IMG/VR virus record: IMGVR_UViG_2534681934_000023 | DNA from: a virus | Lineage: Duplodnaviria; Heunggongvirae; Uroviricota; Caudoviricetes | Strand: one strand, 5' to 3' | DNA length: 24,660 bases | In this document: positions 1 to 3,000 of the stretch, one piece after another | Layout: every line of letters begins with the position of its first letter | Numbering within the stretch: the first letter of the stretch is position 1 | Made by a program: the position numbers

Positions 1-3000
1 ATGTTATCATCTTGTATTGGGGTGGTTATGAAGGATGGTGCGCTGCTCAGGAGTTCTTCACTTTTTATTGCCTACATGGGATGCCTTGGATGGGGGAGTG
101 CTTATTTCTATGGATGGGGTACTTCTTTTTACTACGGCTTCCCATGGTGGATTGTAGGTGCAGGTGTTGATGATGTTGCCAGAAGTTTATTTTTTGCAGT
201 TATCGTCATTGCTATATTTCTTATCGGTTGGGGTATTGGTGTTGTATTCTTTTTCGCAGTGAAAAGAAAACATTCTATGCAAGAGCTAAATGTATTTCGC
301 CTTTATTTTGCTGTGGAATTATTGTTTGTGCCGGCAATTATTGAGTTTTCTATATTGAGACAGAAGATTCAGGTACCTCTTTTGCTACTGTCAGCAGCGA
401 TTGCGCTGGCGGTTACAATTTCGATAAGATCTTATGGGCGATTTTTATCGGTATCATGCTTCTATGATAAGCCATTTATAAAAAAACATTTTTTTGAGAT
501 TGTGATGATTGCTTTTGTGGCATATTTCTGGCTTTTTTCATTTCTGACAGGATATTACAAACCACAGTTTAAGAAAGAATATGAAATGATTAATTATAAT
601 GATGGTTGGTATTATGTTCTTGCTCGTTATGATAATTGTCTGGTTTTGTCTACTTCTTTCAATGCAGGTAGTAAAAGGTTTGTCATTTATCAATCAGCAC
701 AAGATAAGAATCTTCAGGTTGATATTGTAAGGACCAGAATTTAATTGGCTGCATAAATAATATTTTAAGTTGCAAGTTGGCTATTCGTAGGAATAGAACC
801 TTAGGCATGCTGAATGCGTTTCCTGAACATTGTTTTATAAACTGTGTCTGCTTGCTGTTGTGATCCTGCTTTTAGTGATGGTGATGATGGATTTCACCAG
901 CAGGATAATGTTGGTACTGACTGATGGCGCTCTGGTCTGCGGCATTGTGGTATTGCTGTGGCCGATGATGAAAGAACAGAATGAATAATTCTTGACTTTT
1001 TTGTTTACTGTTTATTAAAAAATCAACCGCATGGTGAATCCTCCTTGGAGGGGCTAAATGATCGAGTTTTAAGGGCACGTAGCGAGTTCTGTTTGATCAT
1101 TGCAGAACTTAGCGGGAGGCGCCATGCGTACATCACTAATGTTATTTCCTTCTATCATTTTCCTTGTGAGTTCTGGCTGCGCATGGCGCGGCCTTTTTTT
1201 TATGACCTGCCACTGGCAGATGGTCATCCTGTGATTTGATTCCGGTTCCGGCTTTTTAACTCTGTTCCTGTACACGGGAGAAATTCTATGTCGATTAATC
1301 GTTATGATATTGGTTACAAGAAGTACCACGTATTGTGTTGAGATAGAAAGCATGGTGCCAGAGGTAAATGCAGCAGCATAATAAAAAAGAGCCAGCGCAG
1401 AAGAGAACGGGTAAAAGAGTCTGCGCTGGCGTGGGGATATTCCCCGTGGAGAAATGATATGTAACACACATCGGGAACCTTTCTATATAAACATTATCAT
1501 TATTGTCAATCATAACAGTCAGGTATTATGACGTTTATGCATCAGGGCCATCAGGAATTAACTGGTGGCTTTTTATTGTTGTCAGCTTCCGGATAACGGG
1601 AGACGGGGTATGTACCAGATGGAAAAAATAACAACAGGTGTGTCATACACCACGTCAGCGGTGGGGACGGGATACTGGCTACTGCAGTTGCTGGACAAAG
1701 TCTCCCCATCCCAGTGGGTGGCAATAGGCGTATTGGGTAGCTTGGTGTTTGGCTTGCTGACGTATCTGACAAACCTTTATTTCAAGATTAAAGAAGATAA
1801 GCGTAAGGCTGCGAGAGGTGAATAATGTCGCCATCATTACGCAAGGCTGTTGCTGCTGCTATTGGTGGTGGGGCTGCTGCCATAGCGTCTGTGCTCATCA
1901 CTGGTCCGAGTGGTGACGATGGCCTGGAAGGTGTCAGCTACATACCATACGAAGATATCGTTGGCGTATGGACTGTATGTCACGGACACACCGGAAAAGA
2001 CATCATTCCCGGTAAAACGTATACCGAAGCAGAATGCAAAGCCCTCCTGAATAAAGACCTTGCCACGGTCGCCAGACAAATTAACCCGTACATCAAAGTC
2101 GATATACCGGAAACAACGCGCGGCGCTCTTTACTCGTTCGTTTACAACGTGGGCGCTGGTAATTTCAGAACATCGACGCTTCTTCGCAAAATAAACCAGG
2201 GTGATATCAAAGGCGCATGTGATCAGCTACGGCGCTGGACATACGCTGGCGGTAAGCAATGGAAAGGGCTGATGACTCGCCGCGAGATTGAGCGTGAAGT
2301 CTGTTTGTGGGGGCAACAATGAGCAGAGTAACCGCGATTATCTCCGCTCTGGTTATCTGCATCATCGTCTGCCAGTCATGGGCGGTTAATCATTACCGTG
2401 ATAACGCCATCGCCTATAAAGAACAGCGTGATAAAAAAGTCAGTGAGCTGAAGCAGGCGACCGCCACCATTACTGACATGCAGCAGCGCCAGCGTGCTGC
2501 TGATGCACTCGATGCTAAATACACGAAGGAGTTAGCTGATGCGAAAGCTAAAAATGATGCTCTTCGGCGCAAGCTTGATAATGGTGGTCGGGTGTTCGTC
2601 AAAGGAAAATGCCCTGTGCCATCCTCAGACGAAACCTCCAGCGCCTCCGGCATGGGCAATGATGCCACCGTCGAACTCTCTCCAGTTGCTGGACGAAACG
2701 TTCTCGGTATCCGGGACGGAATTATCCGCGACCAAACAGCACTGAGAACGCTTCAGGAATACATCAGGACGCAATGCCTTCGATGATAGCGATAATTTTA
2801 CTCATCATCCTTCACATCTGGCTCTGTAGACAGGGTGGTGCTCACTTCTGGAGTGAATCATGGTTAAACATCTCATTGCTGATGCTTGATATTGAGCATC
2901 TGGCGCGCGGTAAGGGGCTGCGTTGAGATAAGAGCCAGTCATTAAAAATACCTGGATTTAGCCTCGCATTCGCGGGGCTTTTTTATTGCCATTACAAAAG

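Follow-up and report, generated by a model that had tools for sequence, protein, structure and literature searches.

Lambdoid phages carry accessory genes of deviant base composition ('morons'), such as those for Bor/Iss, Lom and the prophage LpxR, which are expressed in the lysogen and act on the envelope and on host interaction, not on phage growth. Their products are outer-membrane proteins or lipoproteins with known activities. HK97 gp15, P22 SieA and T4 Imm are phage or prophage exclusion proteins of the inner membrane, encoded in moron-like positions. In Moraxella bovis and M. lacunata, TfpB, the founder of Pfam family PF27470, is a 261-residue protein encoded on the chromosome between pilin cassettes, next to the Piv invertase. 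TfpY/TfpZ/FimB-like proteins, whose genes also adjoin pilin genes, are small inner-membrane proteins with a periplasmic C-terminal domain; they were proposed to be non-enzymatic adaptors, and those of the TfpY/FimB type have three N-terminal transmembrane (TM) segments and a larger mixed α/β periplasmic domain and are encoded directly downstream of the major pilin gene (PMC11841053).

The gene described here lies at the start of a 24,660-nucleotide stretch of viral DNA (Caudoviricetes; IMG/VR record IMGVR_UViG_2534681934_000023), hereafter the window. It resembles the lambda-type morons in being a lambdoid accessory gene of deviant composition, but its product is a polytopic inner-membrane protein. 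In membrane location and moron-like position it resembles the exclusion proteins; no sequence or profile similarity to gp15, SieA or Imm was found. Taken by itself the gene is ordinary, and the family to which it belongs is a functional blank under strong purifying selection.

On sequence grounds, the ORF is a bona fide member of PF27470 'TfpB', or the 'STM1630 family'. The precomputed PF27470 tag is carried by the cluster with the identical 247-residue sequence (P0001) and by all 104 homologues. A profile of enteric and distant members, used in place of the PF27470 HMM itself, matched the Moraxella 'protein tfpB' with E = 1.5e-63 and the query cluster with E = 8e-91. The window protein and the founder are collinear from end to end (about 230-260 residues, 27-29% identity; tblastn in M. 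bovis covers query residues 9-236), and they have in common the invariant residues and a layout of five TM segments plus a C-terminal β-domain. Their settings differ: the window gene is part of a prophage late region and has no pilin gene near it. Only in Moraxella is the gene found in a type IV pilin locus, which is a contextual trait and does not define membership of the sequence family.

An earlier note on this DNA, made from the sequence alone, had not recognised the family. The gene is in fact already annotated, as ECs_0816 ('membrane protein') of Sakai prophage Sp3 and as gene 68 (CPT_434_68) of phage 434, and its family already catalogued (phrog_1521 in PHROGs; 'STM1630 family protein' in some RefSeq records). 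The function of the family has not been established by any study, and a match to a characterised family was likewise not obtained here. The ORF protein had no match in NCBIfam and no real match in a Pfam-A release that predates PF27470, the latter because PF27470 is newer than the release searched. Neither it nor its three neighbours matched any of the 5,027 models of PADLOC-DB v2 at E ≤ 1, the family profile gave 0 matches among PDB sequences at E ≤ 10, and no literature was found on PF27470, ECs0816 or 434B.

The 247-codon ORF read by the earlier note, from ATG to TAA on the + strand, is confirmed (Table 1). That note had considered its N-terminus and its upstream neighbour hidden by the window edge, and had named a 3' part of a larger known gene as a refuting outcome. 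Identical O157:H7 genomes supply the upstream sequence: an in-frame TGA lies 30 nt upstream of base 1, the annotated CDS begins exactly at the ATG of base 1, and the upstream neighbour is the antiterminator gene Q with pR'/tR'. The ORF is therefore complete, and its sequence is 100% identical across hundreds of O157:H7 genomes. Its true start is probably not ATG1 but the ATG of Met10, which would make the ORF as read nine codons too long. Full-length homologues are almost all 237-238 residues long and begin at the Met10 equivalent, Met10 is invariant in the homologue alignment A1, and a Shine-Dalgarno-like run stands directly ahead of it; together these make the Met10 start the more likely one. 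Purine-rich counterparts of this run were found in orthologues. The transcript start implied by a conserved promoter-like element, described below, would fall just a few nt before ATG1.

Table 1. Features of the locus in window coordinates. Residues are numbered on the 238-residue protein.
Feature	Position	Strand	Basis or remark
ORF as annotated	1..744	+	247 codons plus stop; RefSeq ECs_0816 / WP_001302581.1, phage 434 CPT_434_68
Shine-Dalgarno-like GGGGTGG	19..25	+	2 nt ahead of the ATG at 28; direct reading
Probable true CDS	28..744	+	238 aa; start at Met10 of the annotated ORF
Family signature: TM1 (residues 9-31), aromatic/Gly-rich periplasmic loop (32-51), Arg52-Ser53 starting TM2	52..186	+	alignment
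TM2 (residues 52-78)	181..261	+	AlphaFold2 helix 47-79, hydropathy maximum
TM3 (residues 91-110)	298..357	+	AlphaFold2, family alignment
TM4 (residues 117-137)	376..438	+	variable part of the family
TM5 (residues 157-177)	496..558	+	conserved YFW.FSF..G.Y motif
C-terminal domain, about 60 residues, five β-strands, predicted periplasmic	559..741	+	AlphaFold2
DUF3927 small membrane-protein gene ('TciB' in phage 434)	830..988	+	Pfam PF13064, E = 3.4e-14
Intrinsic terminator closing the cassette	1175..1201	+	8-bp GC-rich stem then T8; annotated in phage 434 too

The window ORF is a real gene under purifying selection. Its dN/dS is 0.055-0.18 against orthologues at 97% to 46% identity, end-to-end homology of its protein spans three bacterial orders, and 13 residues are invariant in an alignment of 49 sequences whose first row is the window protein (A25, Y26, W30, G37, W40, A51, R52, S53, L54, G71, G175, Y196 and F218). 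Its start at the first base of the window and the split or truncated versions in databases (phrog_14371, phrog_3985; frameshifted rows in the homologue alignment) might suggest a non-functional ORF that arose by chance in AT-rich DNA, or what is left of the end of a larger, disrupted gene. This reading has a negligible probability: the in-frame stop upstream, the homology across three orders, a dN/dS of 0.06-0.18 and the 13 invariant residues rule it out. The AT-richness pointed out from the sequence was borne out by both measures used. In 300-nt windows the GC fraction is 0.30-0.41 over the ORF versus about 0.50-0.57 in the lysis and terminase genes, and per gene it is 0.363 in CDS 28-744 (GC3 0.305) and 0.47-0.55 in the holin, lysozyme, spanin and terminase genes, the neighbouring genes being at about 0.52, with 0.507 for the entire window.

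The multiple TM helices expected by the earlier note correspond to five long helices, seen both as hydropathy peaks and in the AlphaFold2 model, which is of moderate confidence (pLDDT 78.5). The Trp/Tyr/Gly-rich N-terminal segment is also present: SSLFIAYMGCLGWGSAYFYGWGTSFYYGFPWWIVG contains 7 G, 5 Y, 4 W and 4 F in 35 residues, and the family is most strongly conserved there. Positions 52-186 have the highest information content of the 49-sequence alignment (3.1-3.2 bits per column), and nine of the invariant residues, from A25 to L54, fall in the signature region. A K/R-rich cytoplasmic loop (residues 79-90; family-wide net charge +1.8) precedes TM3. From the model, the protein is predicted to be a five-helix bundle of the inner membrane with its N-terminus inside and its C-terminus outside. 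TM1 and TM2 would form a long hairpin whose aromatic/glycine-rich tip, with the invariant Arg52-Ser53, faces the periplasm. Beside this tip, a small periplasmic β-domain is predicted (strands 184-190, 193-201, 204-208, 219-222 and 231-235). This domain is possibly SH3-like; its partial likeness to SH3-like domains in Foldseek is weak and non-significant. Foldseek against PDB and BFVD returned nothing at E ≤ 0.001, so the model has no fold neighbour and gives no functional analogy. The family alignment contains no conserved acidic, His, Cys or Lys set and no catalytic signature. The missing catalytic motif counts as negative evidence only.

The gene is a stand-alone accessory gene, or moron, in the Q-to-lysis slot of an O157:H7 Sp3/CP-933K-type lambdoid prophage. 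As anticipated from the sequence, it lies upstream of the lysis cassette, whose holin, SAR-lysozyme and spanin genes occupy positions 1610-2786, and it has the characters of a moron: the Q-to-holin interval, deviant GC, a promoter-like element, a terminator, rarity and stand-alone occurrence. It was found in 2 of 50,697 phage records, phages 434 and 2B8, and other phages share only the flanking holin region with the window. The phage 434 record marks the region of the ORF as non-homologous in variant 434B, and the genome arm of phage 434 that bears gene 68 also carries Iss-like and LpxR genes. Prophages of Yersinia and of E. coli 05-3629, whose Q genes differ, have the gene in the identical post-Q position. 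The terminator, at L002 9175-9193 plus the T run, was located as well.

A promoter-like sequence, TTGAC(G/T)-N15-TGT-TATG.. (also written TTGACG-N15-TGT-TATGAG), recurs at -67 relative to the Met10 ATG. It was found in Sp3, phage 434, E. albertii, another Escherichia species, a second prophage type and ETEC plasmids, contexts that otherwise share no upstream sequence, and it is absent in Salmonella, Shigella and Yersinia. Given its conservation, the ORF may have its own promoter. A generic promoter scan found 6 sites versus 5.9 expected by chance. One of these, TTGTTA-18-TATCAT, was rejected as a promoter, being conserved only among the three closest orthologues; the conserved element that overlaps it is TTGACG...TGTTATGAG. 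The small DUF3927 gene downstream was also considered as an operon partner and rejected: it co-occurs in the Sp3/434 arrangement only and is absent beside all other family members examined, including copies at 94-97% identity.

Since the gene is the first after Q/pR'/tR' and lies ahead of the holin gene, it would be transcribed with the late operon after induction. This position would also suit a phage late function, in which the protein is made with the lysis cassette and tunes holin triggering or the timing of lysis. Such a function is highly improbable: nearly all lambdoid phages with the same lysis genes are without the gene, its region differs in variant 434B, and it is under selection where lysis genes are wholly absent.

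The family is much wider than this prophage type. Members occur in about one in five complete E. coli genomes and on 106 plasmid records of Shigella, among them the invasion plasmids of S. flexneri, S. sonnei, S. dysenteriae and S. boydii, and they are widespread in Salmonella enterica, where one 90%-identity STM1630-type cluster holds about 2,700 member sequences. The genes almost always flank virulence cargo. In lambdoid prophages, the position behind Q is equivalent to the Stx slot. The Salmonella copy is located between steB and sseJ, that of C. rodentium adjoins lpxR, that of Shigella pINV is flanked by spa40 and virA among T3SS genes of the entry region, and copies on ETEC plasmids (LT and STb plasmids among them) adjoin eltAB. 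In ExPEC the gene lies downstream of sfa/foc-papX. Copies in Pasteurellaceae and Neisseriaceae are single-gene AT-rich inserts; the one in Glaesserella is near cdt, the one in Mesocricetibacter beside RTX-type exporter genes and the one in Mannheimia ahead of a YadA-like adhesin gene. In Moraxella the gene adjoins piv within the tfpQ/tfpI pilin inversion locus. Intact copies under selection persist without phage genes in Salmonella, C. rodentium, pINV, ETEC, ExPEC and the Pasteurellaceae/Neisseriaceae. We infer that the host rather than the phage benefits, since these copies outlast phage genes.

Among these copies, the Salmonella orthologue STM1630 (238 aa, 46% identity, dN/dS 0.17) has published phenotypes; a published knock-out primer encodes its sequence (P0075). 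Like the window gene it is AT-rich and stands beside horizontally acquired virulence genes, but it is a fixed chromosomal gene without phage genes in its surroundings. Its own mapped promoter lies about 175-245 nt upstream, whereas the window copy follows Q/pR'/tR' and has a different conserved promoter-like element. STM1630 is bound by H-NS, and its expression is seen both in SPI-2-inducing medium and within macrophages. Attenuation of its mutants in calves and chicks was reported, and a 4/74 ΔSTM1630 strain replicated more, not less, in macrophages (PMC6785131 S1 Text). It also clusters with genes co-regulated with SPI-2 (PMC2639726). An essential role in Salmonella was rejected, the few transposon insertions having been attributed to H-NS binding and the deletion growing normally (PMC6785131 S1 Text). 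A role as motility regulator was rejected too, as the hypermotility of ΔSTM1630 in a screen was not among the 7/24 phenotypes confirmed with clean deletions.

As a whole, the ORF is best read as a non-enzymatic envelope factor that benefits the lysogen, a reading to which we give about an even chance. The protein may bind a ligand, or act as an adaptor, on the periplasmic side of the inner membrane; it is read as non-enzymatic because the family has no conserved acidic, His, Cys or Lys set. The candidate ligand would be either a lipid or glycolipid of anionic character or an exported protein or a component of an appendage. Its role might be that of a lysogenic-conversion or envelope-fitness factor for the bacterial carrier during host association, not one in phage multiplication. 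In the lysogen it might be transcribed from its own xenogeneically silenced promoter, with additional transcription after induction by Q-antiterminated read-through from pR'.

The Moraxella context raises the question of whether the protein is a pilus or fimbria accessory that aids or modulates the assembly of type IV pili or surface fibres, like TfpY/FimB-type proteins. Moraxellaceae, Neisseriaceae and Pasteurellaceae, the families of the non-enteric hosts, are all taxa known to make type IV pili. In M. bovis, M. lacunata and related species the gene lies in the pilin inversion region, co-oriented with one pilin cassette, and the neighbours in ExPEC (the sfa/foc operon and papX) and in Mannheimia (the YadA-like adhesin gene) would also fit. 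Against this, the M. lacunata copy is truncated, and pilin genes are absent within 5 kb in Neisseria arctica and Avibacterium, beside the gene in nine other Pasteurellaceae/Neisseriaceae loci (two nearest ORFs on each side) and in every enteric context examined; unlike TfpY/TfpZ/FimB-like genes and Moraxella tfpB, most genes of the family do not adjoin pilin genes. The published architecture of TfpY/FimB-like proteins, with three TM segments and a larger periplasmic domain, differs from the five TM segments and 60-residue all-β tail of the window protein, and a relationship to them was rejected on this ground (PMC11841053). We consider a pilus role unlikely.

The neighbouring lpxR genes point in another direction, either to a partnership with LpxR, the lipid A 3'-O-deacylase, or to a different envelope function related to LPS or lipid A. 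The site of Arg and aromatic residues that faces the periplasm would then bind precursors of LPS, or lipid A, and affect how they are modified. The gene of C. rodentium is directly divergent from lpxR, 178 bp apart, and in Sp3 and phage 434 lpxR lies one or two genes upstream; the conserved Arg52, K/R178, K/R182 and aromatic residues of the periplasmic face would suit an anionic glycolipid head group. However, the gene has no lpxR next to it in Salmonella, Shigella pINV, ETEC plasmids, ExPEC, Yersinia, Pasteurellaceae, Neisseria or Moraxella. Common descent of a prophage module of A/E pathogens is therefore the best account of the adjacency, and a functional link to LpxR appears very unlikely.

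The main rival to a lysogen-benefiting envelope factor is superinfection exclusion or anti-phage defence, in which the protein would block the entry of incoming phage DNA or abort infection; prophages would maintain the gene, and prophage relics and islands would preserve it in domesticated form. An inner-membrane protein in the classic lambdoid moron slot, seemingly expressed in the lysogen, would fit such a role. The post-Q position recurs in three prophage types, purifying selection holds the gene in decayed prophage remnants, the central helices are variable as an arms-race surface would be, and single-gene AT-rich inserts at varying chromosomal sites recall mobile defence cargo. On the other side stand the 0 matches among the PADLOC models, the rarity in sequenced phages, and the regulation of the Salmonella copy with the SPI-2 virulence programme together with its animal-colonisation phenotypes. 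Moreover, conservation within the protein is highest at the putative interaction surface, which speaks against rapid co-evolution with phages, and no phage-resistance phenotype has been reported. On balance exclusion is a less likely role, with perhaps one chance in a handful.

The association with virulence loci could reflect mere co-accumulation of AT-rich horizontally acquired DNA, or shared descent from decayed lambdoid late regions. A more speculative possibility, which we regard as doubtful, is that TfpB/STM1630 proteins form an unrecognised class of inner-membrane envelope factors, repeatedly co-inherited with exported virulence determinants and with a specific role at the periplasmic face that is not a by-product of AT clustering. 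Such a role might be to shield or condition the envelope of the producer for the export of virulence factors or, alternatively, to exclude phages that use the same envelope components. A defined function, whether in envelope and colonisation or in phage exclusion, would explain a recurrent passenger of enteric virulence loci and would also end the long orphan status of the Moraxella tfpB ORF.

For annotation, the 'TciB' label of the neighbouring DUF3927 gene in phage 434 was borrowed from phage P1 and is without a tested basis. In genome records of the ORF itself, the start codon should probably be moved to Met10.

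Window 1–744 (+ strand) is a 247-codon ORF running from ATG to TAA. Its product is strongly hydrophobic (F 10.9%, L 9.7%, I 8.8%, V 8.8%) and carries many Gly, Tyr, Trp and Phe residues in its N-terminal part. In sliding windows, its GC content is 0.30–0.41 versus ~0.50–0.57 deeper in the phage late region; positions 28–744 have a GC of 0.363 and a GC3 of 0.305, compared to 0.47–0.55 for the holin, lysozyme, spanin and large terminase genes and 0.507 for the whole window. The earlier note thus describes the ORF correctly as AT-rich, with a membrane-protein product and a Trp/Tyr/Gly-rich N-terminal segment. 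The same note took the true N-terminus and the upstream neighbour to be out of view, and named as a refutation any upstream sequence that would make the ORF the 3' part of a larger known gene. This concern can be set aside: in identical O157:H7 genomes an in-frame TGA stands 30 nt ahead of window base 1, which rules out that the ORF is the end of a larger gene, and the genes upstream are those of the antiterminator Q, ylcG and, on the opposite strand, lpxR. Because nearly all full-length homologues are 237–238 aa long and start at the equivalent of Met10, Met10 is invariant in alignment A1, and a GGGGTGG run (window 19–25) shortly precedes the ATG at window 28, we take 28–744 (238 aa) as the likely coding sequence. 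In the ETEC plasmid allele (L004 5001), the conserved start position is a GTG.

Nei-Gojobori dN/dS values between the window's gene and its orthologues were 0.055 for E. albertii (97% amino acid identity), 0.086 for Escherichia sp. (94%), 0.12 for C. rodentium (66%), 0.16 for the ETEC plasmid (58%), 0.18 for Shigella pINV (57%) and 0.17 for Salmonella (46%). That the ORF is a real protein-coding gene under purifying selection is firmly established, and the reading that it is no gene at all can practically be dismissed.

The protein matched nothing in NCBIfam, PADLOC or the Pfam copy searched, which is older than PF27470. It matched phrog_1521 in PHROGs (no assigned function, E = 1.9e-154), and PF27470 ('TfpB') is the precomputed Pfam tag on 104/104 homologous clusters. 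Membership is secure, since 13 residues are invariant across a 49-sequence alignment whose first row is the window's protein. The family is small, as a profile run exhaustively against 1.84 billion representatives retrieved only 73 at E ≤ 0.001. The gene is ECs_0816 'membrane protein' in Sakai, WP_001302581.1 'hypothetical protein' in other RefSeq genomes and 'STM1630 family protein' in some recent RefSeq records. The Salmonella member (P0075, 46% identity) is STM1630, a 717-bp 'putative membrane protein' gene adjoining sseJ, for which a published knock-out primer encodes NSSMLLAYLGGLGWG. Hence the family, unrecognised at first reading, is in fact catalogued in Pfam, PHROGs and RefSeq naming, and the gene is an already known object. 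Outside Enterobacteriaceae, members with 20–30% identity occur in Pasteurellaceae, Neisseriaceae and Moraxella. The Moraxella homologue is the JGI 'protein tfpB' (family-profile match, E = 1.5e-63). In M. bovis (261 aa) it is flanked by two opposed pilin C-terminal cassettes, and in M. lacunata it lies among piv and two pilin genes, one partial and one full; this locus is the classical tfpQ/tfpI inversion region. The M. lacunata NCTC10359 copy (L033 4974–5561) is truncated, with 195 codons versus 261 in M. bovis (L030 491–1276).

Many E. coli O157:H7 chromosomes match the first 1,600 bases of the window at 100% identity, and the window's first 10,485 bases are 99.98% identical to Sakai prophage Sp3, with divergence from 10486 on. 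Other O157 genomes align to the window in 2–3 pieces that span ~29.5–30.8 kb. The end of the Sp3 match together with this piecewise mapping indicates that a rearrangement or deletion of several kb sets the tail region of this prophage copy apart. In phage 434 the gene is found at the same place (CPT_434_68, 'putative membrane protein'), its 238-aa product is 100% identical, and the phage annotation marks this stretch as non-homologous in variant 434B. The gene directly follows Q in three lambdoid backgrounds: Sp3/434 (after a Q82-like Q), Yersinia enterocolitica (NinG-Q-gene) and E. coli 05-3629 (RusA-Q-gene-methylase-tRNAs). Only 2 of 50,697 isolated phage records carry it, and 1,196 of 5,426 complete E. 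coli genomes (~22%) have a match, covering at least 80% of the gene in 766.

Intact copies also reside in DNA devoid of phage genes: between steB and sseJ in Salmonella; 178 bp from lpxR in C. rodentium, at the ADH-trg chromosomal site that it also occupies in Salmonella; in 106 records of Shigella invasion plasmids, with spa40 and virA on either side in pWR501; on ETEC plasmids, where it has IS elements around it, eltAB divergent and the STb gene ~3 kb away; and in ExPEC after sfa/foc-sfaY-papX, with a pseudogene copy by tRNA-Arg near iro. The C. rodentium lpxR (L045 4863–5823), directly divergent from the family member, is split into two overlapping ORFs and may for this reason be a pseudogene. 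In Pasteurellaceae and Neisseriaceae, the gene forms a single-gene insert flanked by housekeeping genes; the site differs from species to species, and the insert is always AT-richer than its surroundings (e.g. Glaesserella, GC 0.275 vs 0.404). Each Aggregatibacter actinomycetemcomitans genome has two paralogues, located at different housekeeping sites (L023/L025 and L024/L034). In Glaesserella parasuis (L021 5955–7328) a cdtC-like gene (PF03498) is immediately adjacent to the family member, as is an HlyD and C39-ABC exporter pair in Mesocricetibacter (L019 5888–9454); in Mannheimia a YadA-like adhesin gene is a neighbour. The ORF beside the cdtC-like gene has no Pfam match at E ≤ 1e-3, but we read it as CdtB-like.

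Together, the AT-rich composition, the post-Q position in three backgrounds, the rarity among phages and the stand-alone copies bear out the earlier suggestion of a moron-type gene in a lambdoid late region. It is firmly established that this is a complete, singly mobile accessory gene of the TfpB/STM1630 family under purifying selection, and that both the post-Q slot and virulence-associated DNA of horizontal origin recurrently house it; we hold this identity and moron assignment to be highly probable. A lysis-related late function for the protein appears highly improbable. The broad association with exported virulence factors is notable, yet it could reflect clustering in AT-rich islands or descent from decayed lambdoid late regions. 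An accessory role in pili or fimbriae would fit the Moraxella, ExPEC and Mannheimia loci but, with contextual support limited to these three, is quite unlikely. A link to LpxR or lipid A is still less probable, the adjacency being confined to modules of A/E pathogens.

Alignment of the upstream regions revealed a promoter-like element, TTGAC(G/T)-N15-TGT-TATG(A/T)(G/A), comprising a -35 box and an extended -10. In Sp3, 434, E. albertii, Escherichia sp., the 05-3629 prophage and the ETEC plasmid it precedes the Met10 ATG by 67 nt, and in ExPEC it is found at -52. DNA further upstream is unrelated among the compared contexts; the element travels with the gene through prophage, plasmid and island. 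The transcript start it predicts falls a few nt before ATG1, which favours the Met10 start. Its promoter role is putative because a generic promoter scan performed no better than chance. The element was not found upstream of the Salmonella, Shigella and Yersinia copies; in Salmonella, the mapped promoter oligonucleotide lies ~175–245 nt upstream.

Features of the locus and of the predicted protein (L002, O157:H7 locus; residues of the 238-aa protein; charges from family statistics)
Feature	Position	Strand	Remarks
pR'-like promoter, TTGCAA-17-TATACT	L002 7800–7828		between Q and ORF, overlapping Q stop codon
tR', strong intrinsic terminator	L002 7862–7883		between Q and ORF, ~35 nt beyond pR'-like promoter
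Promoter-like element, TTGACG-N15-TGT-TATGAG	L002 7961–7990		11–40 nt upstream of window base 1
DUF3927 gene (PF13064)	window 830–988	+	'TciB' in phages 434 and 2B8
STnc100-like sRNA match	window 999–1204	+	Rfam 37.7 bits, below gathering score 47; E = 6e-6
ECs_0817 'hypothetical protein', 132 aa	window 1069–1467	-	antisense across terminator and sRNA-like region
Strong terminator ending cassette	window 1175–1201	+	
17-codon stub	window 1288–1341	+	first residues match start of phage 434 SASA/NanS-p esterase (MSI..YD)
Esr41-like Rfam match	window 1381–1470	-	very weak, 32 bits vs gathering score 102
Helices (AlphaFold2)	residues 3–36, 47–79, 87–111, 116–137, 149–181		
Five β-strands (AlphaFold2)	within residues 184–235		
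N-terminus			net charge +0.8
Loop	residues 32–51		net charge -1.3, K+R 0.08
Loop	residues 79–90		net charge +1.8
Loop	residues 138–156		net charge +1.6

No sequence relative of the family was found in the PDB. The AlphaFold2 model (49-sequence alignment; mean pLDDT 78.5, pTM 0.72) and the family charge statistics are consistent with a predicted N-in/C-out topology, in which the C-terminal β-domain would be periplasmic. TM1 and the first periplasmic loop are the best conserved parts (3.1–3.2 bits per column). As TM1 and TM2 are each ~33 residues long, the aromatic/Gly-rich tip that they form would be expected to extend out of the bilayer. Invariant polar residues are limited to Ser10/Ser11, Arg52/Ser53 and Arg91, positions 178 and 182 retain K/R, and no family-wide conserved set of Asp, Glu, His, Cys or Lys was found.

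No molecular function of any TfpB/STM1630 family member was found in the literature. STM1630 belongs to a SPI-2-co-regulated cluster of 123 genes (PMC2639726). The supplementary text of PMC6785131 describes expression of STM1630 in SPI-2-inducing medium and macrophages, its absence from S. Typhi and an inactivated promoter -10 element in all ST313 strains; an H-NS binding site in the gene explains its scarce transposon insertions. The same supplementary text reports that STM1630 deletion caused no growth defect and, in 4/74, increased intramacrophage fold-replication, and that attenuation in calves and chicks had been seen for earlier signature-tagged mutants. ΔSTM1630 was hypermotile in one screen (PMC4219756); 7 of 24 mutants had a confirmed phenotype as clean deletions, and ΔSTM1630 was not one of them (PMC4534456). 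Our best mechanistic guess is a protein without enzymatic activity that would act by binding or as an adaptor on the periplasmic side of the inner membrane, to the advantage of the carrier bacterium during host association. In the lysogen, its own H-NS-silenced promoter would drive expression; after induction, Q-dependent read-through would do so. This functional part is only tentatively proposed, and the reading as a whole, identity and function combined, could equally well prove right or wrong. Superinfection exclusion or defence is plausible from the gene's position and its retention in relics, but there is no PADLOC match and the regulation looks virulence-type; we regard it as unlikely. 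TfpB/STM1630 is a well-documented orphan family.

Downstream of the gene, phage 434 has the DUF3927 gene, a small ORF, a terminator, the SASA/NanS-p esterase gene and the pinholin gene. The DUF3927 gene adjoins a TfpB-family gene in the Sp3/434 arrangement only and was therefore rejected as a conserved partner; the name 'TciB' is taken from the phage P1 tci genes, and nothing tested backs it here. Similarity to phage 434 ends at window 1312, so the esterase gene has been deleted or replaced in the window's prophage. The STnc100-like match ends exactly at the terminator and overlaps a 64-codon ORF (1045–1239), a 'putative membrane protein' in the phage 434 annotation; this locus may encode an sRNA in place of or besides a peptide. 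ECs_0817, with no match in PADLOC or NCBIfam, looks like a spurious gene call. A 3,054-bp contig of a MAG labelled Veillonella sp. (L014) shows 100% protein identity to the E. coli/phage 434 TfpB-DUF3927 cassette and almost certainly represents mis-binned enterobacterial or phage DNA.
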